The notes below the pieces were generated by a model. It did not search any database and had not been told where the DNA came from. It was given only the letters and a program-made list of their open reading frames with translations. The translations under genes and the position numbers were made by a program. Positions 6,001-64,000 of a DNA stretch of 64,000 nt are shown piece after piece; the stretch's first letter is position 1; each line of letters begins with the position of its first letter. Source of the stretch: Bacteroidota bacterium (GTDB lineage: Bacteria; Bacteroidota; Bacteroidia; UBA7662; CANHCV01); NCBI GenBank assembly GCA_947459245.1, contig CANHCV010000002.1, positions 6,217-70,216 of the forward strand, in the 5' to 3' direction.

Positions 6001-9000
6001 CGAAAACCTTCAAAATACGCTTCGTTGGAGGCCTTTTGCCGGTTACCCCATTCAAACGTATGAGGTGGCTGAATGGAATGGAGCTGCATGGAACACCATC
6101 GCCACCCAAAACGGAAATGATACCGATTTTGTACACGCTCCCCTCAATTGCAATCAAACCCGCCAATACCGAATCAAAGGATTGAGCAGCAATCCCGCGC
6201 TCTTTACTTTTTCAGATACCCTTCATTTGACTCCTTTCGACACCGTTCCGCCCGTGGCTCCAACCATCACAGGGGCTTCCGTTATTGCCAACGGAAGCAT
6301 TCAATTGGATTGGTCTCCCGTTGGAGGTGATGTGCGTTCCTATGAAGTGTGGATGAAAACAAGCGGAGTTTCTACTTTCACGAGCATGGGAGTGATTGGT
6401 CCGATTACCACTTTCCGAGCTACCGGTTTGAATACCCTCGATTCTTCCTATTGCTTTTACCTGATTGCCTTGGACACTTGTGCGGCCAATCGTTCCGTTC
6501 CTAGCACCGTTCATTGCGTTTCTCAACTTCGAGGAGTTGCTCAGAACCTTCAAAATACCCTAACCTGGAATGTTTATTCAGGAGTAAATCCTTTAAATAC
6601 CAAAGTTCAAATTTTCCAAGGCACTTGGAGCGATTTTGATTCCCTTTCTGGACTTGCCTCCAGCTATGTTCACGACAGTTTGCCTTGCCGTGTTCCCGTT
6701 ACCTACCGTTTGAAAATGGAACTTCCCAATGGATACCCTTCCTATTCCGATTCCATTACCCTCACGCCGTTTGATACCATTCCGCCAACTCAACCCACCA
6801 TTTTGAGGGCATCGGTTCTTTCCAGTTCTTCGGTTCAGCTCACCTGGGCACAAGGAAATGCCGATATTGGAAATTACGAAATTTGGGTAAAAGCTGCCAA
6901 TCAATCCACGTTTACTTTGGCCCAAACCGTTGGTGCAGTAACCACAGGAATTGTTTCCGGATTGAATACCACCGATAGTTCCTATTGCTTCCGTTTGGTT
7001 GCTTTGGATACCTGCTCCAATAACCGCTCTCCGTTCTCGGTGGATGAATGCGCCATGCAATTGCAAGGAGTTGCGCAGAACCTCCAAACTACGTTGAATT
7101 GGAATGCCTACAGTACCGTTTCTGGTCCGGTTAAATACTACGTTCAACGTCTTCAAGGAGGATTGTGGGGGAATGTTGATAGTACCGTTAATTTCACCAG
7201 TTACATTCATTTTAATGTACCGTGTTTAACCCCCATTCATTACCGAATCATGGCGGTTTATCCAGTGGCCGATACTTCGTTTTCAGACACCATTATTTTG
7301 GTTCCGTTCGATACCATCAAGCCATTGGCCACCTTGTTGAACAGCGCTTCCGTACAAGAAGATGGATCGATCACGGTGCGCTGGAATACATCTTCTAGCC
7401 CCGATGTTCGATTCCATGATGTTTACCGAGCTCCCATCGGCTCAACCGCATTCGTTTTGGTAGGAACCGCCACCGATGTTGACACCTTTAACGACGCTAC
7501 CGTTCCCAATGCAGGAACCCAGCGCTACACCTATCAAGTTGTGGCCATCGATTCGTGTAACCTGAACAACCGATCCATCGAATCCAATCCGCAAACGACC
7601 TTCAACCTTTCTGTAAGCAGTGGAGCCTGCCAACCAGCGGTAACCTTGAAATGGACGTCGTATTCTACGTTCACCAACGGTTTGTTGCGCTATCGAGTTT
7701 GGAGAAGCGCCGGTGGTCCTTGGACGTTGGTCGATTCCGTTTCGGCTTCCGATACCGACTTCATCGATTATACGGTTAATCCTCGATTCTCCTATTGCTA
7801 TCAAGTAGAAGCCGTTTCAAATGGCCAAACCTATTTAGCTACTTCCGACACTTCTTGTCAGGTTCCTCGACTTTACCCGAACCCGAACCCAACAACCATG
7901 TTCGGCATTACCACCACCGTTACAGGGGTAGCCAACGGGCAATCGAAAATTACCTGGAACCGATTCCCATTGAACGATTCTTTGGCGAGGGGATACGTGG
8001 TTTACCACAGCACCACCGGTGTTTGGCCCTATACACCCATCGCTACCGTTTCTCGTCCAAACGATACGGTTTTCTTCCACAACAACATCAATACAGCCGA
8101 TTCAATTCATTATTACACGGTGAAAGTGATCGATACCTGTGGAGCACAATCCGATTCTGCTGCACCATTCCGAACCATTAACTTGAATCTAACCATTGGC
8201 AATGGTGCCATGGTGTTGGATTGGTTACCGGTTTTGAATGATACCGTAAGCGGTTATGAAATTGAACGATCTTCCAATGGTTTGGCATTGGTACCCATCA
8301 CCATTTTATCGCCAACCACCACCCAATACATCGATAGTGCTGTTTCTTGTGGAACCCGTTACAGTTATCGCGTGAAAGGGTTGTATTCGTTGAAACCCAA
8401 TTTCACAACCTTCTCCGATAGCGTTTCTGGAATTGCAAGAGATACCATTCCACCAGATATTTCTGTAGTTGAAAAAGCCACCGTTTCTGTTCCCAATCGA
8501 AACGGTCAAATCGAATTGAGCTTCTACAGCCCAACCCAACAAAACCGAAGCGGTTACAACATTTACCGTAAAACTGGAAATGGAGCATGGTCATTGTTGA
8601 GAACATTCAATACTACCGCATTTGGATTAATCACGACCACCGATTTTGGGGTGAATACCTTGGATAGCACCTACCAATACCGCCTAAGCAGTTTGGATAG
8701 TTGCGGCAATGAATCGCAATTCGGCGAAATTCACAGTCCTTCCAACATTTCGGTTACCGCCGTAAGCCAAGCCAATAACATTTCATGGTCGGCTTACCTC
8801 GGATTTGATTCGTTGATTTATCGCATTGAAAGAAGCATCAATGGGGGGAATTTCCAATTCTTCTACGATCTTCAAGGAACATCTTATGTCGATTCATCGA
8901 TCAAATGCGATACGCAATACACCTATCGGGTTAAAGTGTACGACATTCAAAACCCAACCGTTATTTCTTTGAGCGATACAGCAACGGTGATTGGGATCGA

Positions 9001-10396
9001 TTTAACCGCTCCTGCTACTCCGGTGCTGGGCGTTGTTTCGGTAATCAATACCAATCCGTTCGGTGGAACCGTTCAAGTTAATTTTGCCAACAGCACCTCC
9101 ACCGACGTTCGTTTCCACATCCTCGAAAGACGTACTGCCAATTCTGCGAATTGGAGCGTTCGAGCTCGAATTCCTGCCGGAGGAGCAACCATCTTCAACG
9201 ATTTTGGAAATACTTCCGACAGCATTTATGTGTATCGAGTTTACGCCATCGATACCTGCGGAAACGTTTCTGCATTCTCTGCCCAACACGCTTTCGTTCA
9301 TTTGGAAACAACGCCGTTGAATGAATCGATGCAGTTGAATTGGTCGCGTTACGTTGGTTTCCCTGTTGGAAAATATGATGTAGTTCGCGATGGAAATGTG
9401 ATTGCTTCTTTCTTAGGAGGAAACGACACCAGCATGATCGATACGCAATTGATTTGTACTCAAACCTACCAATATTTCATTCGAACCTATGGGTTGGATC
9501 AATTAACCACATCCCTTTCGAACGTAGAGAACAACTCGCCCTTCGATACCACCGCTCCTTTGAATACCTATTTGCAGGTCGCTTCCGTTGAACGCGGAGA
9601 TGCTTCCAACAAAATTACCTTCCGTGCAAGTACTTCTTTTGATGTGCGCACGTATCAAATTTGGAGAAGAACCAATGGACTTGGTGCGCCAGTTGTGGTT
9701 TACCAAACCACGAATCCCGTTGTTGGATTTACTACGGTCATCGATTCGTTGAACGTGAAGGCCGATGCAGAATCTTATTGCTACAGCATTGTTGCTTTCG
9801 ACTATTGCGGAAACCAAAGTCCTGAAAGCAATTTGGGCTGTACCATGTTGGCAAAAGCCACGTATTCCAAATTGAAATCGACCATCACCTGGACGCCCTA
9901 CAGCCAGTGGTGGGCTGGAGTTGACCACTACGAAGTGGAACGTACCACCGATGGAACCAACTGGATTCAGGTTGCCAATGTGCCCACCTCCGTGAATAAA
10001 TTTATTGATGAAGATTTGCCCGCTGATGCCGGCCAACTTTGTTACCGCGTTATGGCCGTTGAAACTCCTGGCAATTTCAATGAAAAATCGTACTCCAATA
10101 CTGCTTGCGTGGTTCCCGAACCCGTGGTTCATATCCCAACAGCATTTTCACCTGGAACTTCTGCTGGATTGAATGATAATTTCGGACCGGTTGCGGCCTT
10201 CTACGATCAATTTGAATTGACCATTTTCAACCGTTGGGGTGAAAAAATCTTTGAAGGAAAATCGAAAAACGATCGTTGGGACGGAAAACACAAAGGTGAA
10301 TTGGTTCAAACCGGCCTTTATGTTTACCAATTGATTGTGTACGATTTCAACGGTAAACCTTACCGATTCCAGGGAACTCTTTCGGTGGTACGATGA
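1..10396 (+). CDS. Giant cell-surface adhesin-like protein (more than 3400 aa in the window, 5' end outside it). It is built of tandem FN3/Ig-like beta-sandwich domain pairs and ends in a T9SS type-B C-terminal sorting domain (the gliding-motility-associated CTD).
   Basis: The reading frame is open from position 2 with no upstream stop. The ORF-track M at 155 is internal. The C-terminus reads AFSPGTSAGLNDNF...IFNRWGEKIFEG...WDGKHKGE...GLYVYQLIVYDF, which matches the type-B CTD (TIGR04131-like) consensus FSPNGDGxND...fnRwG...WdG...GvY.Y. A module of about 180 aa recurs many times (...LTPFDTxxP... CYRVxAxDSCxNxS ... NLQNTLxWxxY ... YSDxxxLTPFDT). Confidence 0.85.
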   Translation, partial: GGIPDFNVSTLPLAQRANFPSRPTLPGNNTGVSGYYTPVTYQGAYSFPSNQVPAIAPDTLKMTTNTGEISFTPTNQGGFVVAIECLEYRVDRINNVTTYLGSTRRDLQFFFDASCTGNTAPQVFVTDSFTLQVGDTLDFNAVGIDFDPSRDTVIMSISGDIVGTGSGKASVTITPGPSQAIMNVRWIPTCSFARTAPYFLIITAKDSICAVTQKTVYIRVLPKDIILPPSLRCAAVLGDDSISLSWVRTTSASADFGKYYIYRNLNGGAFSLIDSIPSRTTQTYLDRNVSLADQSNVYGYFMVSVNNCGEPGLTSDTIFSILPLVQKISSTQFRVTWNELTTAIGKRYGKIYRLYEDRGTGYTLVQTGTQRSFVSSGCDFRIKYKVETTDSQTTCISSGFSIWNALKDTIRPSTPSITLFSVDGTGKSTITVQKSDSLDAIRYLIYRSSNGGAYVLIDSVNQTGLGTFVYRDASSNPSSIKYCYKVAARDSCGNLSFQSTENCGIKLTGIPGHFSSVLTWTPFSSPLLSGYVLQRWNGSLWVTIGSFPTTQLGYVDTPRACGISNTYRVFGTYGPSDSSFSNSVVVTPIDTIKPISPRLLSVSAISNDSVQVTFFRSPDPRVKLSRIQVSTNGGAFSNLTSFTNPTTDTLRFWHVGLNNAVNQYCYRVLAFDSCSNTISVPLDTHCVTQLSVTGGSRLNALTWPKYPFSTTDSVRIERQVGTSWTRWALLPGSATSFNDTGIVCNSTITYRVISFSSSLSAISVIRSGTVFDTTRPALAWINGISYLNDTLTLFFPTHFDVAGVNIYFKTNGGPRSLLRKYYKVNSSNIQKVALPALTSSVDTFEFSITTFDSCSELESVQSPWYFPIHLRGTGGSYTSNLSFNAPVIPSNNTPSYTQVTLERFLSPLLGYQTVRTLTNIVPGFNSIIDTVPEYIINPTNINDTIDIFCGQGILYRISYLANVRTPTLVYSNEIETFPIDTFYPNNVNIIYLSTKGTDSIEVQWKKHIRPSVTKYVVYISQNGGPFVSVDTVLNNLPFVYFKRYGRYNMTNTQISVRIAAFDSCSGKWSRNFETHTHSFLTGTSLAGRKTAVLNWRSYRGYVPGFRYKIIRMDPANGVSSVIANVLDTFYTDTTMACNNPINYTIFIDEINGDGGSGYTNTITLIGTDTIAPNKPMINSVSVRGLNRIEIYPNTNFQDIDSFEVFGRTKFGTWSSLGFYKAQPVISVNLSPTMDSILCIRMVGLDSCANNRSVPSDEHCMIQLTGSPQNLSNQLNWSAYSGISTNNKIHIVQELISGVWQNIDTTLSNQLQYTHLNLPCGIEKTYRIMYFDTISSVFSYSDTISLTPFDVTRPNKPSINIATVVDQNTIFIRWNASTSPDVNRYELWKSPLGTNNWVLDQLAFYRDSAWVTGNTVDTIWSFRLVAIDSCGNNRSDTSLVQTVANIQGIAQNLQLTLFLSNYRSTSQYSMTLEEYSPVNGWIGSTTKTGLTDTLVITNLPCNQPFTYRLVIQDSLGNTVSYSDSIQVVPFDTITPIQPVIEYLSTNGVDSISLSWSASRSLNIKNYHIYGAPYGTPIAFLDSVPDTVLNYSFLANNVNSPWVIYVLAKNYCNEKLSVFEDSVVTYHPFLSQTGCDKSIQLDWSLGKFEFFIGNDSIDVYRGTSFNTLSLFQTLAPGTVNFVDTSVRFGTRVYYQIKVNSANYRDYSLSFVSNDSIVPLPIPSIILTSVLKTDPTNGSIEVKWNSVQTIPFSKSVNLYTSTTINGPKTLLGRFSRTDSFFVWNGINTETQSYYFFAYLEDSCGFVSESNAPHRDIDFSVNNAQLVNQMSWNHYEGVPVTSYQIEVLNGTTWNVFDVVSSSQNSYTRFPAPCNNQITYRLGAILANGLVSYSDTVTVRVIDNIVPDTALISQATVLNDSVVQLTFSMAGAADIYGYAIQQSINGGPATTVQFVPQGTIGSVVTIFDTVNTLNNRLCYSVLTQDSCLNVSKGDDFCVIQLEGLAENLQNTLRWRPFAGYPIQTYEVAEWNGAAWNTIATQNGNDTDFVHAPLNCNQTRQYRIKGLSSNPALFTFSDTLHLTPFDTVPPVAPTITGASVIANGSIQLDWSPVGGDVRSYEVWMKTSGVSTFTSMGVIGPITTFRATGLNTLDSSYCFYLIALDTCAANRSVPSTVHCVSQLRGVAQNLQNTLTWNVYSGVNPLNTKVQIFQGTWSDFDSLSGLASSYVHDSLPCRVPVTYRLKMELPNGYPSYSDSITLTPFDTIPPTQPTILRASVLSSSSVQLTWAQGNADIGNYEIWVKAANQSTFTLAQTVGAVTTGIVSGLNTTDSSYCFRLVALDTCSNNRSPFSVDECAMQLQGVAQNLQTTLNWNAYSTVSGPVKYYVQRLQGGLWGNVDSTVNFTSYIHFNVPCLTPIHYRIMAVYPVADTSFSDTIILVPFDTIKPLATLLNSASVQEDGSITVRWNTSSSPDVRFHDVYRAPIGSTAFVLVGTATDVDTFNDATVPNAGTQRYTYQVVAIDSCNLNNRSIESNPQTTFNLSVSSGACQPAVTLKWTSYSTFTNGLLRYRVWRSAGGPWTLVDSVSASDTDFIDYTVNPRFSYCYQVEAVSNGQTYLATSDTSCQVPRLYPNPNPTTMFGITTTVTGVANGQSKITWNRFPLNDSLARGYVVYHSTTGVWPYTPIATVSRPNDTVFFHNNINTADSIHYYTVKVIDTCGAQSDSAAPFRTINLNLTIGNGAMVLDWLPVLNDTVSGYEIERSSNGLALVPITILSPTTTQYIDSAVSCGTRYSYRVKGLYSLKPNFTTFSDSVSGIARDTIPPDISVVEKATVSVPNRNGQIELSFYSPTQQNRSGYNIYRKTGNGAWSLLRTFNTTAFGLITTTDFGVNTLDSTYQYRLSSLDSCGNESQFGEIHSPSNISVTAVSQANNISWSAYLGFDSLIYRIERSINGGNFQFFYDLQGTSYVDSSIKCDTQYTYRVKVYDIQNPTVISLSDTATVIGIDLTAPATPVLGVVSVINTNPFGGTVQVNFANSTSTDVRFHILERRTANSANWSVRARIPAGGATIFNDFGNTSDSIYVYRVYAIDTCGNVSAFSAQHAFVHLETTPLNESMQLNWSRYVGFPVGKYDVVRDGNVIASFLGGNDTSMIDTQLICTQTYQYFIRTYGLDQLTTSLSNVENNSPFDTTAPLNTYLQVASVERGDASNKITFRASTSFDVRTYQIWRRTNGLGAPVVVYQTTNPVVGFTTVIDSLNVKADAESYCYSIVAFDYCGNQSPESNLGCTMLAKATYSKLKSTITWTPYSQWWAGVDHYEVERTTDGTNWIQVANVPTSVNKFIDEDLPADAGQLCYRVMAVETPGNFNEKSYSNTACVVPEPVVHIPTAFSPGTSAGLNDNFGPVAAFYDQFELTIFNRWGEKIFEGKSKNDRWDGKHKGELVQTGLYVYQLIVYDFNGKPYRFQGTLSVVR
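660..9600 (+). repeat. In-frame tandem coding repeats, about 17 units of roughly 535-600 bp (about 180 aa each, two beta-sandwich domains per unit), inside the giant adhesin gene
   Basis: The unit-boundary motif (T/P)PFDT(I/V)xP recurs at about 1222, 1775, 2318, 2931, 3493, 4039, 4580, 5133, 5693, 6230, 6765, 7303, 7860, 8440, 8998 and 9540. Paralogous stretches are recognisable at the DNA level, for example ggagttgctcagaaccttcaaaatac at about 6535 versus ggagttgcgcagaacctccaaactac at about 7070. Confidence 0.7.
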
Positions 10397-36214: not shown

Positions 36215-37177
36215 GTGAAAAAAGGACTCCTCTTAGCATTTTTTTTCAGCTTGACCTTGGGCTTCCATCCAGAAATGAATGCCTGGGGTTTTCATGCTCA
36301 TAAAATGATCAATCGGTATGCGGTTTTTACGCTCCCAACCGAATTGTTTGGCTTCTACAAAAAGAACATCGATTACATCACCGAACACGCGGTAGATCCC
36401 GATAAGCGTCGTTATGCTATTTTGGAAGAGGGACCTCGACATTTTATTGATATTGATCACTACGGAAGCTATCCTTTCCCTGAACTGCCTCGGGTTTGGG
36501 AAAAGGCCGTGGCTAAATTTTCCGAAGATACCTTGATCGAATACGGCATTGTTCCTTGGAATACCTACAAAGTTTACCGCCAATTGGTGTGGGCATTTTC
36601 TCAGAAAAACGTGGGGCGGATCCTCAAGCTTTCCGCCGACCTCGGGCATTACATCGGTGATGCGCACGTTCCCTTGCACGCCACCAAAAACTACAACGGG
36701 CAATTCACCAATCAGGAAGGCATTCATGGCCTATTGGAATCGCGGTTGCCCGAATTGTTTGCTGCCGACTACGATTTTTTTGTGGGAAAAGCAGAATTCG
36801 TAGATAAACCGCAAGAAGCCATTTGGAATGCCGTTCTGGGCAGCGCAAAATTGGTAGATACCGTGTTTTCTTCCGAAAGAATGACCGGGAAAAGCGTTTC
36901 TCCCCAAGCAAAATATGCTTTCGAAACCAAGGGGAGAACCGTTGCAAAACAGTATTCGAAGGCATATTCTTCCGATTTTCATGCCCGTTTAGGAAGCCTG
37001 GTGGAAGACCGAATGAAATCGTCGATTGTGTTATTGGGAAGTTTGTGGTACTCGGCTTGGGTGGAAGGCGGGCAGCCGAATTTGGATCAATTGGCAGGAA
37101 TTCCAGAGAAGGAAGATATCGTTGCCGATTCGGCTTTTCGAGAAGGGAAAATCAAAGGACGAATCGAAGCCGATTAA
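36215..37177 (+). CDS. Zinc-dependent phospholipase C / S1-P1 nuclease-superfamily protein
   Basis: Signal peptide followed by the mature N-terminal WGFHAHKMI motif, plus His/Asp-rich zinc-ligand motifs (HFIDIDHYG, GDAHVPLHAT). Confidence 0.6.
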   Translation: MKKGLLLAFFFSLTLGFHPEMNAWGFHAHKMINRYAVFTLPTELFGFYKKNIDYITEHAVDPDKRRYAILEEGPRHFIDIDHYGSYPFPELPRVWEKAVAKFSEDTLIEYGIVPWNTYKVYRQLVWAFSQKNVGRILKLSADLGHYIGDAHVPLHATKNYNGQFTNQEGIHGLLESRLPELFAADYDFFVGKAEFVDKPQEAIWNAVLGSAKLVDTVFSSERMTGKSVSPQAKYAFETKGRTVAKQYSKAYSSDFHARLGSLVEDRMKSSIVLLGSLWYSAWVEGGQPNLDQLAGIPEKEDIVADSAFREGKIKGRIEAD

Positions 37178-37238
37178 TTGCAATTTCCGTCCAAATCGCA
37201 GGAATTTCCAGAGGTCGAAGGTTCGTTTTGGACGGATT
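37162..37238. repeat. Left copy of a 77-bp direct repeat flanking the VapBC insertion
   Basis: Identical to 38073-38149 at 75 of 77 positions. It contains the genuine stop of the nuclease-like gene and an orphan copy of the dsbA 3' end. Confidence 0.9.
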
Positions 37239-37291
37239 CTCAGACGGATGAAAGGGCACCTATTGTCAATTTTGCAAAAATAACCACCTGT

Positions 37292-37324
37292 TTACACGTG
37301 CTTATTTACCAAATTTTACACGTG
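37292..37324 (+). promoter_or_regulatory. Putative vapBC promoter/operator: two direct copies of TTACACGTG, each containing the CACGTG palindrome, 24 bp apart
   Basis: tTTACACGTGcttatttaccaaatTTTACACGTGtt lies 40-75 bp upstream of the vapB ATG. Confidence 0.4.
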
Positions 37325-37365
37325 TTACTTGAATCTTTTTCTAACTTTGTGAAAAGACGAACCTC

Positions 37366-37614
37366 ATGAATACAAAACTTACGCTTACCATTGATCATTC
37401 CATCATTGAGAAGGCAAAACGTTATGCACGAGAACAAGAGAGAAGCCTATCCGACTTAATAGAGAATTATCTTAGGGCATTGACCAATGAAAATGCGGTG
37501 GATGACGAAGTTTTGAGTCCCACCATCGAGCAATTGCGTGGTTCATTTAAAATGCCTAAGGATTTTGATTACAAAAAAGAACTCACAGATAGCTTAACAA
37601 AAAAGTTTCTTTGA
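37366..37614 (+). CDS. vapB: VapB-like antitoxin of a type II toxin-antitoxin system
   Basis: An 82-aa protein. The N-terminal KLTLTIDHSIIEKAKRYAREQERSLSDLIENYL is RHH/Phd-like. Its stop lies 2 nt before the PIN-gene ATG. Confidence 0.65.
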   Translation: MNTKLTLTIDHSIIEKAKRYAREQERSLSDLIENYLRALTNENAVDDEVLSPTIEQLRGSFKMPKDFDYKKELTDSLTKKFL

Positions 37615-37616
37615 TC

Positions 37617-38039
37617 ATGAACAAGATCTTCATTGATACGGATGTTATACTTGACTTCTTTTTTGATAGAAAGCCATTTTCTGATGATGCCACTAAGCTT
37701 TTCATTTTATGTGAAAAAAAGATTGTTACTGGTTTCGTAACCCCCGTAATTCTAAGCAATGTGTATTATCTTTTGAGAAAAACTGCAAAACATGAGAAGG
37801 TCATTGAGAAGTTAAAAATGCTCATCAATTTGATCGAAATAGTGACAATTAATAAGGCTACGATTTTAGAAGCTCTAAATTCGGAATTCAAAGATTTTGA
37901 AGATGCATTGCAGAATTATTCTGCACAACACGACAAAGACATTCAAGTCATTGTGACAAGAAACGTCAAAGATTTTAAAGAAAGTCGTTTGTCGGTCATG
38001 ACTCCAGAAACATATTTGAGGATAGGAAACGTCTTCTAG
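37617..38039 (+). CDS. vapC: PIN-domain ribonuclease toxin VapC
   Basis: N-terminal IFIDTDVILDFF with the catalytic Asp, plus downstream acidic residues (NSEFKDFEDALQ..., VTRNVKDF). The ORF-track start at 37611 is a TTG and the ATG is at 37617. Confidence 0.8.
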   Translation: MNKIFIDTDVILDFFFDRKPFSDDATKLFILCEKKIVTGFVTPVILSNVYYLLRKTAKHEKVIEKLKMLINLIEIVTINKATILEALNSEFKDFEDALQNYSAQHDKDIQVIVTRNVKDFKESRLSVMTPETYLRIGNVF

Positions 38040-38072
38040 CAGGAACCAAACTGTTTTAAGGTTAGTTCTCTC

Positions 38073-38149
38073 AATCGAAGCCGATTAATTGCAATTTCCG
38101 TCCAAATCGCAGGAATTTCCAGGGGTTGAAGGTTCGTTTTGGACGGATT
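38073..38149. repeat. Right copy of the 77-bp direct repeat
   Basis: See the left copy. This copy carries the functional dsbA 3' end and an orphan copy of the nuclease-like gene's last codons. Confidence 0.9.
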
Positions 38150-38789
38150 TCCACTCTCCGAACGATTGGCGCAAAGCGCCGGCAAAAACCGAGGCGTCTT
38201 GGGCGCCAGAAACTACGTACTTGTCGTTGAAAACGAAGTGGGGAACGCCCCGAACTCCAACATTTTTCGCTTCGTATTGATCCTGAATCACGTCGTTGGA
38301 ATAAACATCGGATTCGAATAACTCCTGAATTTCAGAATCGGAGATGCCTAAATTCGCACCAATTTCCGAGATAACCTTGGTGTCATCGATGTTTTTTCCT
38401 TCGGAAAAATGGGCCAAAAACAACGCTTCTTCGCAGGCGTGCTGCACGTTCCATTTTTTGGCCAAGTGGCTTAACCGATGAGCTAAAAAGGAATTGGCAA
38501 TCACTTGTCGATCGAAATGCATGGCAATCCCCACCTCTTTGGCCATTTCCGAAACCCGTTGAATCATGGATCGAACGTGTTCCATTGGCATTCCTTTTTC
38601 CTCGGAAAGGTAGTGGTAAATGGACGCTTCAAGATTGGTTTCCAAATCGGGATTCAATTGATAGCTTTTCCAAATGATTTGGATGTTGTCTTTGAATTCC
38701 AAGGATTGTAACGCTTGCTCCAATTTTCGCTTACCAATGTAGCAAAACGGGCACATCACATCGCTCCAAATCTCTACTTTCATGTCCAA
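38085..38789 (-). CDS. DsbA-family thiol-disulfide oxidoreductase (FrnE-like)
   Basis: Thioredoxin-fold active site CPFCY in MKVEIWSDVMCPFCYIGK. Length 234 aa. Confidence 0.8.
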   Translation of the reverse strand: MDMKVEIWSDVMCPFCYIGKRKLEQALQSLEFKDNIQIIWKSYQLNPDLETNLEASIYHYLSEEKGMPMEHVRSMIQRVSEMAKEVGIAMHFDRQVIANSFLAHRLSHLAKKWNVQHACEEALFLAHFSEGKNIDDTKVISEIGANLGISDSEIQELFESDVYSNDVIQDQYEAKNVGVRGVPHFVFNDKYVVSGAQDASVFAGALRQSFGEWKSVQNEPSTPGNSCDLDGNCN

Positions 38790-40502
38790 TTATCTTCCCA
38801 TGGAAACCAAAAACTCTTCGTTGCTGATGGTGCCTTTCATTTGCGACAACAAGAATTCCATGGCTTCGGTGTTGCTCATGTCGTTCAAGTGGTTGCGAAG
38901 GATGTACATGCGTTGAAGTACTTCTTTGCGGTGCAACAAATCGTCGCGTCGGGTGGAAGAGGTCATCACGTCGATGGCAGGATAGATGCGGCGGTTCGAA
39001 AGTTTACGATCGAGCTGCAATTCCATGTTTCCGGTTCCTTTGAATTCCTCGAAAATTACTTCATCCATTTTACTTCCGGTGTCGATCAACGCCGTGGCAA
39101 TGATGGTAAGAGAACCGCCGTTTTCGATGTTACGAGCAGCTCCAAAAAATCGCTTGGGTTTGTGCAAGGCATTGGCGTCAACCCCACCCGAAAGAATCTT
39201 TCCGGATGCAGGAGCAACGGTATTGTAAGCCCTTGCCAATCGCGTAATGGAATCCAAAAGAATCACTACATCGTGTCCGCTTTCCACCATTCTTTTGGCT
39301 TTTTCGAGCACCATGCTGGCAACTTTTACGTGTTTATCGGCCGGTTCGTCGAAGGTAGAAGCGATCACTTCTCCTTTTACGCTTCGGGCCATATCGGTTA
39401 CTTCTTCTGGTCGTTCGTCGATCAAAAGAACAATCATGTAGGTTTCGGGATGGTTGCGGGCGATGGCGTTGGCCACGCTTTTTAGAAGCATGGTTTTACC
39501 CGTTTTGGGTTGCGCTACAATGAGTCCGCGCTGCCCTTTTCCGATGGGAGAAAAAAGGTCGAGAATGCGACAAGAATAATCGTTCGCCTGATCGGCTAAG
39601 TTGAATTTTTCGTCGGGGAAAACCGGGGTTAAGTAATCGAAAGGAACACGTTCCCGTACTTCTGTAGGGTTTTTCCCATTGATGCTATCAACGCGTACCA
39701 GAGCAAAATAACGTTCTCCTTCTTTGGGTGGACGCAATGAACCTACTACCGTATCGCCCGTTTTTAGTCCGTAATTGCGGATTTGGTTCGGGGAAACGTA
39801 CACATCATCGGGAGAGGAAAGGTAATTATAATCGGAGGAACGCATGAAGCCGTAGCCTTCCGACATGATTTCCACCACGCCTTCGTGCATGATGAGGTTA
39901 TCGAAATTGTATTGATCCAGGGCGTGGTTTTTGGGACCATTATTGCGTTGGGGATGTTGGTGTTGGTGATGCGGATGTGGTCGCGACTCTGGATTATTCT
40001 CCGTTGGGTTTTGATCGGATTTTGGTTCTTGTTGTTTGCCTTCCGGACGTGGAGAAAATCCGCGGTTTTCCCGATTTTCCTGTGGTTTACGCTCTTCAGA
40101 TTTGGGTAAATCGGAAGGGTTCCTGGGACGTTTTTCGAATCGATTGGGGCGTTTTTCAGGGGTTCCTTCAGATGCTGCTACTTCCGAAGTGGTAGGAGCC
40201 TCTGAAACCGGAGTGGCTGGAACGGTTACCTCCTCTTTATCCATTCTCCTTCTTTTCGTTGTTTTTTCGATTCCTGCTTCTGCAGCAGGTTTTTCATCCG
40301 AAAAAAGAGTGGGTTTTTCTTCTTTGGAGAAACGTGAACGTTTGGGCTTTTCTTCTGCTGGTGCTGGTGCGGTGCTTTTGTTTCCAGAAATGGCTTCAAT
40401 CAAAGCATCTTTTTTAAGAGAGAAGAAATTCTCCAAGTTCAATTCATCCGCAATGATTCTCAAATCTTTGAGAGATTTCGCTTTTAAATCATTTAAATTC
40501 AA
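38790..40502 (-). CDS. rho: Transcription termination factor Rho with a long low-complexity N-terminal insertion
   Basis: The C-terminal RecA-type ATPase ([20 protein letters not shown], Walker A) and the OB/CSD region are conserved. About 230 aa of K/E/P/R-rich sequence, including [10 protein letters not shown], lies between the N-terminal helix and the CSD. Confidence 0.9.
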
Positions 40503-61347: not shown

Positions 61348-61947
61348 TTATTGAAATCCCATTTTCTTTTCCCACTCGGCCGCCTCTGGCGGACTCAGTA
61401 ACTTTTCCGATTGGATGATTTTTCCGGAAGAAACGACTTGTTGAATCATCACCTTTTCACCCATCTTCCGAATGAAAAACGTATCCATGGGCTGGGTAGC
61501 GTTTCCGTAGAAATAATCCGACTCCTCCCAGTGGTTTTTTTGGTAAGCGATTTTTTTGCGAACCCGATTATTTTCATCTAAAAACTCGATGTTTCCCTGA
61601 TGGGTTTTCTTCAGAAAGATGCGGAATGGTTTGAATCCGGAATATTTTTCCGTCACTTTCCATTCCTTTTGAAGGGGTTTTCCTTGCATTTCACTCCTCC
61701 ATCCTTCTTTCTCTTTCCATTGCTTCTCCCACGCGTATTGACTTCCCCAATAAGCGAAAACGGCGTGACCCACGGCTACCACAAAAAGTTGAAGGAAAGC
61801 AAAAAATAGGAATAACTTTTTCGCTTTTTGAAATTCTGATTTTTGGTTTTTTCGTTCGTAGAAATACGACCAAATCACTCCAATGACCAGCAAAACAAAG
61901 GCGATTTGAAAAGCCAAATTGTAGTCGGAAAGTTTTACCAGAATCAT
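61348..61947 (-). CDS. Hypothetical membrane-anchored protein
   Basis: The start is probably MILVKL..., whose ATG overlaps the mfd stop (ATGA at 61944-61947). There is one N-terminal TM helix (FQIAFVLLVIGVIWSYF). Confidence 0.5.
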   Translation of the reverse strand: MILVKLSDYNLAFQIAFVLLVIGVIWSYFYERKNQKSEFQKAKKLFLFFAFLQLFVVAVGHAVFAYWGSQYAWEKQWKEKEGWRSEMQGKPLQKEWKVTEKYSGFKPFRIFLKKTHQGNIEFLDENNRVRKKIAYQKNHWEESDYFYGNATQPMDTFFIRKMGEKVMIQQVVSSGKIIQSEKLLSPPEAAEWEKKMGFQ

Positions 61948-64000
61948 GCAGTTGTTTGAAGAATGTCTTGCAAAAGTACAAAGGCTTCTCGCAATTGATG
62001 AACCATTTGCCACTCCAATTGAATGCTTTCTCCCTTTTGTTTGAATTGCATTTTCTCGGGATGTTGTTGTGCCCACGCCAAGATTTGACCAAAAATGGGG
62101 CTTTGGTAAAAGCGTTCCACGTTTCCGGCTACCAAATGTCCCCGCATTTTGCTGTTTTTGAGAACCAATTTCTCAATTCCCAGCTGTTTCGCCAGCCTCC
62201 TCAAACGAATGACTTCCAACAAATTAAGCCCAGCTTTTGGCATGGGTCCAAAACGGTCTTCCAATTTCTTTTTGTAGGCTTCAATGCTCTCGTCGCTCTC
62301 ATCCAAATTATCCAATTCCATGTACATGGCCAACCTTTCGGTGGTGTTGTTTACGTAATTTTCGGGCAAAAACGCGTCGATTTCGGCTTCTACTTGGCAA
62401 TCGCGAACAAACGGACGATCGGGTTGATCTTGGAACAAATCCTTGAATTCCTCGTGTTTCAGTTCCTCTACCGCTTCATCCAAAATCTTGTGGTACATCT
62501 CAAAACCAATTTCGCTGATGAAACCGCTTTGCTCTCCGCCCAACAAATTCCCCGCTCCCCGAATGTCGAGGTCTTTCATGGCCACGTTGAAGCCGCTTCC
62601 AAGGTCGCTGAATTCTTCAATGGCTTTCAAGCGGCGGCGCGCCTCGTTAGAGAGTGACCTGAATGATGGCACAATTAAATAACAAAACGCTTTGGCATTG
62701 CTTCGGCCTACTCGTCCCCGCATTTGATGCAAATCGCTCAGGCCGAAATTTTGGGCCTCGTTTATGATGATGGTATTGGCATTGCTGATGTCGAGCCCGC
62801 TTTCAATAATGTTGGTAGCAACTAAAATATCGAACGCTCCATCCATGAAAGCCATCAAGGTTTCTTCCAAAGCGTCGCCTTCCATTTGCCCATGGCCCAC
62901 ACAAATGCGGGCTTCGGGAACCAATTTTTTAAGGAAAGCCGCAATCTCTTGGATGTTTTTTACCCGGTTGTGTACGAAAAATACTTGCCCATCCCGTGCC
63001 AATTCGAAACGAATGGCATCCCGAATTTTCTCTTCATTCGAAAAAAATGAACTTTTCCCATGTTCGTTCGAACTCATTAACTCGGTAGAAACCGGCTGAC
63101 GATTCGGAGGTGGAGTATTGATCACCGAAAAATCCCGAGCACCCATCAACGAAAATTGCAAGGTTCTTGGGATGGGCGTAGCGGTTAATGTTAACGTATC
63201 TACATTCACCCGGAACGACTTCAATTTTTCCTTTACCGAAACACCAAATTTTTGCTCTTCGTCAATAATCAAAAGTCCTAAATCTTTGAACTTTACATTC
63301 TTACTAACAATGGCGTGCGTTCCAATCACAATATCTACTTTGCCGTTTTCCAAAGCTGCATATACTTCTTTGGTTTCTTTGGTAGAGCGGAAACGATTCA
63401 AATAATCAACCTTCACCGGGAAATCGGCCAATCGTTCCGAGAAGGTTCGGTAGTGTTGGAAGGCCAATAACGTGGTTGGAACCAAAACGGCCACCTGTTT
63501 TCCGTCGCAAGCGGCTTTAAAGGCTGCTCGTATGGCCACTTCCGTTTTTCCGAATCCAACGTCTCCACACACCAAGCGGTCCATCGGCATTTCTTTTTCC
63601 ATATCGGTTTTTACCGCTTGGATGGCCTTGGCCTGATCGGGTGTTTCTTCGTAAATGAAGTTCGATTCCAATTCGTACAGCAAATAATTATCGGGACCAA
63701 AAGCGAAACCTTTTTGAGCCCTTCGCTTAGCATACAGAAGGATAAGGTCTTTGGCGATATCCTTGACCTTCGATTTCGTTTTGGTTTTTAATTTCTCCCA
63801 AGCATCGGAACCCAGTTTGTTCAATTTGGGGTCGGCATTTTCACTTCCGCTGTATTTGCTGATTTTGTGCAAAGAGCTGATGCTCACGTACAATAAATCG
63901 TTGTCGCGGTACAACAAGCGAACGGCTTCTTGCAGTTTTCCTTGTACTTCCAGTTTCTCCAATCCGTCGTACCGGCCGATGCCGTGATCGATGTGCACTA
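61944..64000 (-). CDS. mfd: Transcription-repair coupling factor Mfd (C-terminal roughly 685 aa; the 5' part lies beyond the window)
   Basis: Superfamily-2 helicase motifs (GDVGFGKTEVA, DEEQKFG, QMRGRVGRS) and a TRG/C-terminal domain. The ORF is open to the window edge. Confidence 0.9.
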   Translation of the reverse strand, partial: VHIDHGIGRYDGLEKLEVQGKLQEAVRLLYRDNDLLYVSISSLHKISKYSGSENADPKLNKLGSDAWEKLKTKTKSKVKDIAKDLILLYAKRRAQKGFAFGPDNYLLYELESNFIYEETPDQAKAIQAVKTDMEKEMPMDRLVCGDVGFGKTEVAIRAAFKAACDGKQVAVLVPTTLLAFQHYRTFSERLADFPVKVDYLNRFRSTKETKEVYAALENGKVDIVIGTHAIVSKNVKFKDLGLLIIDEEQKFGVSVKEKLKSFRVNVDTLTLTATPIPRTLQFSLMGARDFSVINTPPPNRQPVSTELMSSNEHGKSSFFSNEEKIRDAIRFELARDGQVFFVHNRVKNIQEIAAFLKKLVPEARICVGHGQMEGDALEETLMAFMDGAFDILVATNIIESGLDISNANTIIINEAQNFGLSDLHQMRGRVGRSNAKAFCYLIVPSFRSLSNEARRRLKAIEEFSDLGSGFNVAMKDLDIRGAGNLLGGEQSGFISEIGFEMYHKILDEAVEELKHEEFKDLFQDQPDRPFVRDCQVEAEIDAFLPENYVNNTTERLAMYMELDNLDESDESIEAYKKKLEDRFGPMPKAGLNLLEVIRLRRLAKQLGIEKLVLKNSKMRGHLVAGNVERFYQSPIFGQILAWAQQHPEKMQFKQKGESIQLEWQMVHQLREAFVLLQDILQTTA

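Follow-up and report, generated by a model that had tools for sequence, protein, structure and literature searches.

Solitary chromosomal toxin–antitoxin (TA) islets are described from Escherichia coli, in which ccdO157 lies between folA and apaH and further TA pairs occupy the relA-mazG and dinB-yafP intervals (Fraikin et al. 2020, PMC7167474). That review notes that the way in which TA systems pass from host to host and become integrated 'remain[s] unelucidated' (PMC7167474). The locus described here resembles such islets in holding a two-gene module with its own promoter between housekeeping genes, present or absent among close relatives, at a conserved location, with no adjacent mobility genes and with parts that decay over time. 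It differs from them in being bracketed by a 158-bp duplication of the ends of the target genes that keeps two overlapping convergent genes intact, and a literature search for TA cassettes flanked by target duplications found no such footprint described.

A second point of comparison is provided by e14 and phage 21 of E. coli, which insert in the 3′ end of icd and supply a replacement 3′ end. As in those elements, the repeats of the present locus correspond to a duplicated gene 3′ end of ~150–165 bp, the target gene is functional and an orphan 3′ fragment lies at the far side. Unlike them, the insert is shorter than 1 kb, has no integrase and consists of a TA operon only. In addition, its repeat copies exchange sequence and decay, and the boundaries of foreign sequence in a relative that carries the cassette (L095) lie off the repeat.

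Integron gene cassettes, among them TA cassettes of sedentary chromosomal integrons (PMC13108822, PMC4889954), appear to share with the present one a small discrete unit, a sharp 5′ boundary at G|TT (the bar marking the boundary), inverse-complementary end motifs and an own promoter, and related copies in L086 and L103 stand, like integron arrays, in arrays separated by long repeats. In contrast to integron cassettes, the flanking repeats of the locus are host coding sequence and not attC, defined here as an imperfect hairpin of ~57–141 nt with R′′/L′′/L′/R′ boxes at the cassette 3′ end; integron cassettes are moreover bounded at the G|TT within a GTTRRRY core that is complementary to an RYYYAAC core.

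The comparisons reported below favour, with a probability of roughly 75%, an old TA islet that arose together with a 158-bp duplication and was then shaped by decay with homogenization of the orphan copy and by exchange through homologous recombination.

Organization of the locus

The locus lies in a 64-kb stretch of DNA that was analysed as a whole and is called here the window (Table 1). Two direct repeats flank an insert of 834 bp (37239–38072); on alignment they match at 75 of 77 positions, with mismatches at 37212 and 37216, upholding the near-identity claimed in a preliminary description of this DNA. The first 50 nt of the repeat occur exactly twice in the window (none expected in shuffles), which holds no further long direct repeat of comparable quality. 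The same arrangement is found in five independent assemblies (ENA, JGI, NCBI, Logan) and several lineages, which rules out an assembly artefact. A 921-bp Logan contig (L002) was considered as a circular form and rejected, being a unitig broken at the repeat.

The + strand nuclease-like gene matches Pfam PF00882 with an E value of 1.8e-5, slightly under the curated cutoff, and its homologues are named S1/P1 nuclease or zinc-dependent phospholipase C in their sources; identity to L004 and L005 is 95%. The gene ends in ...GCCGATTAA, its final 16 nt lying inside the left repeat copy, and the remainder of that copy (37178–37238) duplicates, as an untranslatable orphan, the terminal 61 nt at the 3′ side of dsbA. 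On the opposite side, the dsbA-like gene encodes its C-terminal CDLDGNCN tail within the repeat, and its stop lies inside the TTAA of the right copy, the same TTAA as that of the nuclease stop, so that the two stops overlap. Exactly the same overlapping-stop junction is present in the empty-site relative L005, which, with the open reading frames (ORFs), confirms the convergent arrangement proposed earlier. Both genes are intact because the gene ends are duplicated, and the orphan dsbA fragment and orphan nuclease codons expected on the left and right, respectively, are there. The proposal that the insertion duplicates both gene ends is correct in that both ends are present, but the duplication is strongly asymmetric, and is in effect one of the dsbA 3′ end: it extends 147 nt into dsbA versus only 10–11 nt beyond the dsbA stop codon, with 11–12 orphan nuclease bases on the dsbA side.

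Within the repeat of the window lies an inverted repeat of 10 bp (TCCGTCCAAA...TTTGGACGGA; minus-strand z = −3.5), which is specific to the window lineage. No known RNA, tRNA target or intrinsic terminator was found in the repeat, with no Rfam match and no tRNA nearby.

As stated in the preliminary description, no integrase or transposase is encoded nearby: the annotated ±10 kb and 30 further large ORFs of the window, other than a 3413-aa ORF and the ORF at 61944–63998, contain no such domain, a few ORFs having no Pfam match at all. Neither an integrase gene nor a fragment of one lies within the insert, and no plasmid or phage vehicle was found, matches in PLSDB and INPHARED all being below 40% identity. 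Compared with known classes of mobile element, the locus shows the direct repeats rebuilding the 3′ end of a target gene that are typical of integrative elements, without a recombinase gene; set against insertion sequences and transposons, which have terminal inverted repeats and a short target-site duplication of fixed length, it has no transposase and a duplication of 158 bp.

Table 1. Features of the locus, in window coordinates
Feature	Position	Strand	Basis or content
Nuclease-like gene (zinc-dependent phospholipase C / S1-P1 nuclease family, signal peptide)	36215..37177	+	Intact ORF
Left repeat copy	37162..37238	.	Nuclease 3′ end (to 37177) and orphan dsbA 3′ copy
Decayed distal remnant of an older, longer left copy	37239..37292	.	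Local alignment to the L095 left copy
Promoter and putative operator region	37291..37349	+	Elements common to cassettes at unrelated loci (alignments)
Antitoxin gene, vapB-like, DUF6364, 82 aa	37366..37614	+	Pfam PF19891, E 5e-26
Toxin gene, vapC-like, PIN_3, 140 aa	37617..38039	+	Pfam PF13470, E 1.7e-18
Locus-specific cassette 3′ flank with small hairpin (GGAAC...GTTCT)	38040..38072	+	Fold; cross-lineage comparison
Right repeat copy	38073..38149	.	Orphan nuclease codons 38073–38084, TTAA 38085–38088, functional dsbA 3′ end
Full 158-bp unit (TCGA...GTTGAAA)	38075..38232	.	Defined from L005 and L095; window coordinates read from sequence
dsbA-like gene (DSBA/FrnE-type thioredoxin fold)	38085..38783	-	Intact; Pfam PF01323, E 3.4e-40

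The cassette and its relatives at unrelated loci

The insert comprises a DUF6364 gene, a PIN_3 gene and their promoter, and only ~160 nt of it are non-coding (the remnant of a decayed repeat copy, the promoter with its putative operator and a 33-nt 3′ flank). Judged from its Pfam domains (67.9 bits for PIN_3, against a cutoff of 27) and upstream elements, it is a VapBC-type (DUF6364 + PIN_3) type II TA cassette with its own promoter between two convergent genes, as had been proposed. NCBIfam has no model for either protein. The antitoxin gene ends 2 nt upstream of the ATG of the co-oriented toxin gene, and the pairing of DUF6364 with PIN_3, of which more than 4000 homologues are known, is kept at every locus examined. 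Toxin residues D7, E33, D93, D96 and D119 do not vary among 14 homologues (66–100% identity) and, by their position, would be assigned to the PIN catalytic quartet; no solved structure close enough to the toxin by sequence was found.

Upstream of the antitoxin gene, the promoter region displays two conserved TTTACACGTG boxes (CACGTG at 37295–37300 and 37319–37324) and a TAACTTTG motif (37342–37349), all of which recur in cassettes at unrelated loci; the motif may be a promoter element of the −7 type found in Bacteroidetes. On the 3′ side, similarity to the cassettes of other loci ends at the vapC stop codon. The hairpin of the 3′ flank that follows is not better than shuffles (z = −0.76), and an apparent covariation in the hairpin after vapC (CTAAC/GTTAG versus CTAGC/GCTAG) was discarded, all four combinations being found among related sequences.

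Copies at unrelated loci (L086, L087, L089, L111 and L103) all begin sharply at G|TTAGCGGAAATCACC and close with CCGCTAAC. The two termini common to the family, G|TTAGCGG and CCGCTAAC, are exactly inverse-complementary to each other. The left junction of the main locus aligns on the same GTT column as the family 5′ end, and the bases that follow have diverged. In L086, on ctg28238 of ERZ26867466, the cassette is followed by an imperfect hairpin repeat of 125 nt, starting with CGCTAAC and ending with ..GGAACG|TTA, and the gene of an IS110-family transposase adjoins the upstream repeat copy. The flanking repeats in L086 (125 nt) and in L103, on k119_12652 of ERZ27284606 (206–370 nt), resemble repeat elements and not target duplications. 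Cassettes at four other loci have no flanking repeats, which means that the family does not constantly carry a long duplication at its flanks; L087, L089, L104–L106 and L111 have none, and the idea of long repeats as a hallmark of the family is unsupported. Short duplications flanking the copies at other loci were likewise absent.

Age of the insertion and selection on the cassette

Orthologous cassettes occupy the same site in L004, L085, L095, L096 and L100–L102, representing at least three other lineages of an uncultured clade, and both junctions are homologous: on the right, ..GTTCTCTC followed by 14–16 nt of nuclease tail, and on the left, ..GTCGTTGAAA|GGAAGAATGTTTGAC. Between the window and these other lineages, dS values are 0.39–0.68 for the cassette and 0.56–0.64 for the nuclease gene, and nucleotide identities run in parallel (88.6–89.6% for the cassette and 84–87% for the nuclease 3′ end). 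The dN/dS ratios against orthologues (0.12–0.15 for the antitoxin and 0.05–0.07 for the toxin) show that the cassette is under purifying selection and that both of its genes are maintained. Same-site cassettes in several lineages, divergence equal to that of the flanks and purifying selection together show that the insertion is old and that the cassette entered an ancestor of an uncultured Bacteroidota clade.

The notion of a recent arrival is thereby refuted, orthologues with the same junctions being present in several species-level lineages and the synonymous divergence of the cassette equalling that of the flanking gene. The low GC content of the insert, estimated beforehand and computed here at 35% versus ~46% (0.351, against 0.463 for the nuclease gene, 0.451 for dsbA and 0.442 for the 64-kb window), is ruled out as a sign of recency, since in every host examined the cassette has a higher AT content than the DNA around it and the composition is a family property.

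Given the few taxa of the tree, (window, (filled lineages, L005)), a gain followed by a loss and two gains are equally parsimonious. L091 was considered as an outgroup; it is the only more distant relative found and cannot polarize the character, because the gene downstream of its nuclease gene (83% identical) is not dsbA.

The 158-bp unit and decay of the orphan copy

The 77 bp repeated in the window do not give the size of the original duplication, but its surviving part. In the relatives, the duplication spans 158 bp: 14 nt from the end of the nuclease gene, the shared TTAA among them, and a further 144 nt from the 3′ end of dsbA. Only the right-hand copy of this unit is complete in the window, the left one being reduced to positions 1–75, with 2 matching bases before them and a decayed remnant after them. 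A local alignment of the remnant with the distal stretch of the left copy in L095 scores 22, a value reached by only 4 of 2000 shuffles, and 46 positions of the distal unit are missing from the remnant. Its best-kept stretch (37244–37260, ACGGATGAAAGGGCACC) matches the dsbA sequence of the relatives and not that of the window itself.

The state of the left copy varies among the relatives. It is intact in L095, where the distal 83 nt agree at every position with the empty site of L005 (83/83), while the right, functional copy matches that site at 71/83 positions and is of a foreign type. An 11-nt deletion in the left copy is common to L004, L096 and L100, and L085 shows a further deletion, 53 of the 83 distal positions being gaps. 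Comparison of these aligned copies shows that the orphan copy erodes through lineage-specific deletions and is, by the same reading, partly re-homogenized. Indeed, at unit positions 44–75 the two copies of the window are identical at 30 of 32 positions and share at most 62% identity with the copy that other lineages have on the right or as their only one. Within-genome gene conversion and import from an empty-site relative account equally well for the 77 bp of the window.

Empty site and exchange between genomes

An empty-site allele in relatives had been named beforehand as a check on the insertion, and L005 provides it: this genome has no cassette and a single copy of the unit. Over 6.4 kb, its identity to L095, a filled genome, reaches 97.9%, and the excess mismatches between the two are confined to the right copy and ~200 nt of dsbA. 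The VapC protein is identical in L095, L096 and L097, whose left and right copies are configured differently; L097 carries the 'left-type' deletion of 11 nt in its right, functional copy. Divergence distributed in this way about the cassette is consistent with exchange through homologous recombination.

The present polymorphism fits either a circle re-entering by homology or plain homologous exchange, and no circular form of the cassette was seen. The preliminary description had offered three mechanisms, a trans-acting recombinase, a circular TA mini-cassette and replication slippage; the second, with re-entry by homology, fits the polymorphism of today, and none of the three is proven for the origin of the locus. 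Among the sampled lineages, no allele has the duplication without the cassette, L005 with its single copy being the sole cassette-free allele.

History of the locus

According to the history favoured here, the cassette entered an ancestor of the clade in an event that left two 158-bp copies flanking it and both genes intact. As the comparisons show, purifying selection has since kept the cassette, the orphan copy has lost sequence by lineage-specific deletions, and the two copies, as well as copies of different genomes, have exchanged sequence. In the window lineage, a deletion probably took out the middle of the orphan copy, and the part up to the breakpoint would then have been overwritten by the dsbA-type sequence of the lineage itself. 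Near-identity of the repeats would thus stop where homology stops. Present-day gain and loss, to judge from the mosaic alleles, are best explained by RecA-type homologous recombination, for which the repeats and the genes beside them can supply the homology. A filled or an empty allele could be imported from a relative, or a ~0.9-kb circle with one repeat copy could be excised and re-enter.

For the founding event, we tentatively propose that a recombinase supplied in trans delivered a discrete cassette to a GTT within dsbA, and that dsbA was then restored by duplication or repair, for which either a template switch or homology-facilitated repair may be responsible. Coincidence of the cassette 5′ end with the family-wide G|TT boundary speaks for delivery as a discrete unit. 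Against it stand the absence of a recombinase in the ORFs scanned and of an attC-sized site at the locus, as well as the fact that a conservative site-specific crossover alone does not create a 158-bp duplication, and the proposal accordingly stays doubtful.

The asymmetry of the duplication is what would be expected if the insert were the remnant or satellite of an integrase-type element that targeted the dsbA 3′ end and carried a replacement for it. The repeat copies would then be attL and attR, with an element-borne functional copy on the right and the displaced host 3′ end on the left, in line with the host-type left and foreign-type right copies of L095; all but the addictive TA pair would have been deleted later, or the integrase would have acted in trans. 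TA modules are generally known to stabilize integrated elements in many cases (Fraikin et al. 2020, PMC7167474). However, the insert and the scanned ORFs of the window hold no integrase gene or fragment, the ~160 nt of non-coding insert DNA are accounted for, and the foreign tract of L095 runs ~200 nt past the repeat into dsbA, which suits homologous import better than a clean att boundary. An origin from such an element is therefore considered unlikely.

An alternative that needs no recombinase, and corresponds to the 'replication slippage' of the earlier account, is one-step replicative template switching or microhomology-mediated break-induced repair. Having replicated the dsbA 3′ end, the growing strand would have switched to a different molecule, picked up the cassette there and rejoined the chromosome 158 bp short of its point of departure, so that the unit was copied twice. 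This would account for a long duplication of non-standard length, and flanking repeats of differing length do occur elsewhere (L086 and L103), though these resemble repeat elements. However, random switching does not predict a cassette 5′ end placed exactly at the family boundary of unrelated loci, and no clear microhomology is seen at the junctions of the best-preserved alleles. We consider this route improbable, much as we do the integrase remnant.

Capture of an integron-type cassette at a secondary GTT in dsbA by an integron-like integrase in trans, followed by homology-facilitated repair that restored dsbA and removed most of attC, appears less probable again. The inverse-complementary ends G|TTAGCGG and CCGCTAAC are like the R′ and R′′ cores of attC, the left junction of the main locus is at a GTT, and chromosomal integrons typically hold TA cassettes that bring a promoter with them (PMC13108822). 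The hairpin repeat of L086 with its neighbouring IS110-family transposase gene also suits an integron, since IS1111-type elements target attC sites; they target REP sequences as well (PMC11187229), and the repeat might just as well be an element of the REP or MITE kind. Against such a capture, the main locus has no attC-sized structure, only 33 nt separating the vapC stop from the repeat, and no IntI is encoded in the window ORFs scanned; in L087 and L089, the sequence after vapC folds no better than its shuffles; genomes of Bacteroidetes rarely contain integrons (PMC9024848); and the model requires two steps.

A tandem duplication of the gene-end overlap that came first and gave the cassette a non-coding landing pad, unrelated to the mechanism of insertion, would require no special insertion chemistry, and only a pre-duplicated site might tolerate insertion because overlapping convergent stops offer no neutral intergenic DNA, but this order of events is very unlikely given that no cassette-free duplicated allele occurs among the sampled lineages and that the cassette lies exactly at the boundary between the copies and not anywhere within them.

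The old islet with its 158-bp duplication, exchanged by homologous recombination, lends itself to a bolder and improbable extension. The DUF6364–PIN_3 pair might be a recombinase-less mobile cassette of Bacteroidota with ends G|TTAGCGG...CCGCTAAC, delivered in trans by an integron-like or other system, with the 158-bp duplication acting as a portable homology 'att' site through which a ~0.9-kb circle would re-enter the empty sites of related species by homologous recombination of the ordinary kind. If that were true, the locus would record both steps, the arrival and then the spread of solitary TA islets.

Four properties of the locus could make the integration of TA islets testable: a clean footprint, with filled and empty alleles in near-identical backgrounds, a long target duplication preserving two overlapping genes, a lineage series that shows decay and re-homogenization of an orphan copy, and a cassette family whose ends are sharply defined. 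The locus is a useful but not revolutionary footprint of TA cassettes entering and leaving chromosomes; its value is that of a good natural example and not of a new principle, because it concerns one locus in an uncultured clade. The arrangement also has a cost, in that sequence from the eroding orphan can be transferred back to the functional dsbA gene, as illustrated by the deletion in the functional copy of L097.

A repeat-flanked toxin-antitoxin cassette at the junction of two convergent genes

Re-alignment bears out the direct repeats of 77 bp, identical at 75 of 77 positions, that the preliminary description had reported at the ends of a nuclease-like and a dsbA-like gene (Table). The first 50 nt of this repeat occur exactly twice in the window and in none of 100 shuffles, and no comparable repeat was found elsewhere in the 64 kb. 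The nuclease-like gene ends in GCCGATTAA, and the stop codons of the two genes overlap, as had been proposed, in a shared TTAA. The 834-bp insert between the copies has a GC content of 0.351, against 0.463 (nuclease) and 0.451 (dsbA) in the flanking genes, in agreement with the lower value noted before. It carries a PIN-domain gene with the invariant acidic residues and an adjacent small antitoxin gene, which are sequence hallmarks of a VapBC-type type II toxin-antitoxin (TA) system, and putative operator-like repeats are conserved upstream of the antitoxin gene.

Coordinates of the features in the window
Feature	Coordinates	Strand	Length	Remarks
Open reading frame	155-10396	+	3413 aa	Internal 47-nt repeats about 540 nt apart (5975, 6515, 7049)
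Nuclease-like gene	36215-37177	+		Relative of zinc-dependent phospholipase C / S1-P1 nuclease; weak PF00882 match; homologues so named by sources
Left repeat copy	37162-37238		77 bp	
Near-invariant tract	37168-37204 (= 38079-38115)		~43 nt	GCCGATTAATTGCAATTTCCGTCCAAATCGCAGGAATTT
Repeat part with 10-bp inverted repeat	37186-37236 / 38097-38147			TCCGTCCAAA...TTTGGACGGA
Remnant of left copy	37244-37260			ACGGATGAAAGGGCACC
DUF6364 gene	inside insert		82 aa	E 5e-26
PIN_3 gene	inside insert		140 aa	E 1.7e-18; starts 2 nt after the DUF6364 gene
Right repeat copy	38073-38149		77 bp	
dsbA-like gene (DSBA family)	38085-38783	-		PF01323, E 3.4e-40; stop within the same TTAA, right copy
rho	38790-40502		570 aa	Long low-complexity insertion near the N-terminus

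The surroundings are of a housekeeping nature and include lpd, an MMPL transporter gene, rho, an Omp85-family gene, gldL/gldM/gldN, exbB/exbD/tonB, mreB/mreC, and PBP and RodA genes. The window corresponds to an ENA metagenome contig from a Bacteroidota organism. Domain scans of the annotated 10 kb on either side of the cassette and of 30 further large ORFs found no integrase or transposase domain, in line with the preliminary description; no tRNA gene was found near the cassette locus, and no Rfam family was matched. The repeat-flanked cassette is real and was correctly described at the sequence level. The event is older, however, and the duplicated unit larger than first thought, measuring 158 bp instead of 77 bp.

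Alleles in relatives and the decay of a 158-bp unit

A scan of one genome per species yielded two close relatives of the nuclease gene. The empty site, proposed earlier as a search target in relatives, was found in one of them, L005 (94% amino-acid identity), where the convergent nuclease and dsbA genes have overlapping stops in TTAA and no DNA between them. The other, L004 (95%), carries a related cassette at the same position. Further filled alleles (L084, L085, L095-L099 and L100-L102) came from metagenome contigs scanned for exact patterns and from look-ups of VapC variants. The right junction is common to all filled alleles (..GTTCTCTC followed by 14-16 nt of nuclease tail and TTAA...), and all except the window share a left junction in which ..TATTTGTCGTTGAAA is joined to GGAAGAATGTTTGAC..CACGT. 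Because the junctions are shared, the filled alleles reflect either one insertion event or a process precise at both ends. Short-read assemblies are often interrupted precisely at the two copies, stranding the cassette on its own contig of about 0.9 kb (L002, of 921 bp, and many VapC-bearing contigs below 2 kb), which automated pipelines could misread as a free or circular element.

L095 retains the whole left copy. One end, TCGAGG, lies 14 nt short of where the nuclease stop codon ends; the other, GTTGAAA, lies inside dsbA, 147 nt from the first base of the dsbA stop codon. The distal 83 nt of this copy match the empty L005 at 83/83 positions and the right copy of L095 at 71/83. An 11-nt deletion is common to the left copies of L004, L096 and L100, and a further deletion in L085 leaves gaps at 53 of the 83 distal positions. 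The window left copy tracks the right copy to unit position 75, lacks the next 46 positions and then retains a remnant alignable to the distal portion of the copy in relatives (score equalled by only 4 of 2000 shuffles). This remnant is like the relatives' dsbA sequence, ACGGATGAATCTTGGGCACC, and unlike the window's own functional copy, ACCGAGGCGTCTTGGGCGCC.

In the nuclease gene, the window lineage falls outside a group that unites the empty L005 with all other filled lineages (nucleotide identity 0.88-0.89 for window versus others, 0.947 for L004 versus L005). The window cassette is 88.6-89.6% identical to those of the other lineages; its dS (0.39-0.68) lies in the same range as that of the nuclease gene (0.56-0.64), and its dN/dS is 0.05-0.15. 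Evolution of the cassette under purifying selection therefore goes back about as far as the separation of its hosts. In each genome examined, its AT content exceeds that of the flanks, and low GC is a trait of the cassette family.

Homogenisation of the copies and exchange between genomes

Unit positions 44-75 encode a fast-evolving DsbA linker. Here the two window copies agree at 30 of 32 positions, while no other lineage has a right-hand or single copy that matches the window left copy at more than 62%. Chance could not have kept an orphan of the cassette's age in step with the functional gene, so its proximal part must have been overwritten by dsbA-type sequence of the window lineage. The source might have been the right copy, through conversion, or an empty-site relative, through import; excision followed by re-entry is a third possibility. 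Near-identity would end at 77 bp because the overwritten tract, by any of these routes, stops where homology stops, at the deletion breakpoint.

The filled L095 and the empty L005 differ at 134 of 6469 aligned positions, with the excess differences clustered in the right copy and in some 200 nt of dsbA adjoining it; further on, the two are nearly identical. This pattern fits a recombination tract extending past the repeat and does not fit a clean site-specific boundary. L095, L096 and L097 encode an identical VapC protein, yet their repeat copies differ: the left copy is intact in L095, and the 11-nt deletion lies on the left in L096 and on the right, in functional dsbA, in L097. Sequence thus passes from one copy to the other and from genome to genome. 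In L097 (751-790), the functional copy carries the deletion otherwise seen in orphan left copies. In L100-L102 a Gln-to-stop change shortens DsbA to 214 aa (L100:4398-4460), and the functional dsbA of L097 and of L100-L102 is without the conserved C-terminal CDLDGNCN tail, which suggests that sequence of the decaying orphan copy can pass back into the working gene by conversion. The locus recombines actively and is polymorphic for presence and absence. On the available tree, one gain and one loss are as parsimonious as two gains; the more distant L091 was of no help as an outgroup, its downstream gene being different.

The cassette family at other loci

VapC homologues number >4000 at E <= 1e-10, those named by source being mostly from Bacteroidota; among known plasmids and phages, none was found to carry a close cassette copy. 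Unrelated loci hold copies that are 82-86% identical (L086, L087/L088, L089/L090, L103, L104-L110, L111), that of L089/L090 between convergent genes. Homology between loci begins sharply after a G, at TTAGCGGAAATCACC, with vapB lying ~100 nt further on, and runs as far as the stop codon of vapC, CCGCTAAC. In L086, L087, L089, L111 and L103 these 8-nt end motifs are exact inverse complements, and the sequence outside them is unrelated. The left junction of the main locus falls on the same GTT column, which suggests that the cassette arrived there as the same discrete unit.

Flanking repeats are absent at L087, L089, L104-L106 and L111. In L086, a 4.2-Mb Bacteroidota genome (VapC 82% identical to the window's), hairpin-forming repeats of 125-129 nt (3266-3394 and 5419-5547; 96% identical) bracket an IS110-family gene (3411-4424) and vapBC. 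The copy after vapC starts at its stop (CGCTAAC...) and ends at ..GGAACG/TTA, the upstream copy directly adjoins the transposase gene, and the repeat forms a long imperfect hairpin with arms GCACACACCAGCAAAGCCAA and TTGGCTCTTCAGGTGTGTGC; its appearance suggests an IS target of the attC-like or REP-like kind. In L103 (2033-4628) the cassette adjoins tRNA-Arg(CCG), downstream of which three repeats (206-370 nt, 88-99% identical) stand between vapBC (VapC 86% identical to the window's) and another small cassette, whose two ORFs gave no Pfam matches; no recombinase was found on this 4.6-kb contig. Both arrays may recall integron-like or tandem-att structures.

Origin of the duplication

A conservative site-specific crossover at GTT would cut the last 49 codons off dsbA, so something restored them. 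One candidate is an integrase-type element that would have brought a substitute for the dsbA 3' end and shrunk afterwards to the TA pair; the long gene-end duplication is similar to what elements inserting at the 3' ends of genes leave behind. Alternatively, an integron-type cassette may have been captured at a secondary site with subsequent homology-facilitated repair, a double template switch may have made the duplication, or a tandem duplication may have pre-existed the cassette. Simple versions of all four are opposed by the lack of a recombinase, of an attC-sized site or of clean L095 boundaries. In favour of a directed event at dsbA are the unit's asymmetry and the cassette's canonical 5' end.

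Integron cassettes, integrase-bearing islands and transposons were each tested by their defining features; the main locus fails in all three cases and is not filed under any of them. The cassette behaves like the chromosomal TA islets of E. coli reviewed by Fraikin et al. (PMC7167474), who describe the mechanism of integration as unknown. The locus is a solitary TA islet with an unusually long target duplication and a well-resolved decay series.

Further sequence features

A perfect 10-bp inverted repeat spans the dsbA tail codons in the window repeat (fold z-score -3.5, minus strand); its 3' arm ends 2 bases before the 77-bp identity ends, and other lineages have a weaker version. The ~43 nt around the overlapping stops are near-invariant in every copy and lineage, orphan or functional, while the adjoining coding sequence differs by 11-20%. 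This tract holds the palindrome AATTGCAATT, and synonymous sites of the CDLDGNCN codons are also conserved; a constraint at the nucleotide level is possible. Elsewhere, the window contains one very long ORF with internal repeats, and the low-complexity insertion of Rho is rich in the residues E, K, P, Q and H; the 573-aa protein of L005 conserves it, with indels.
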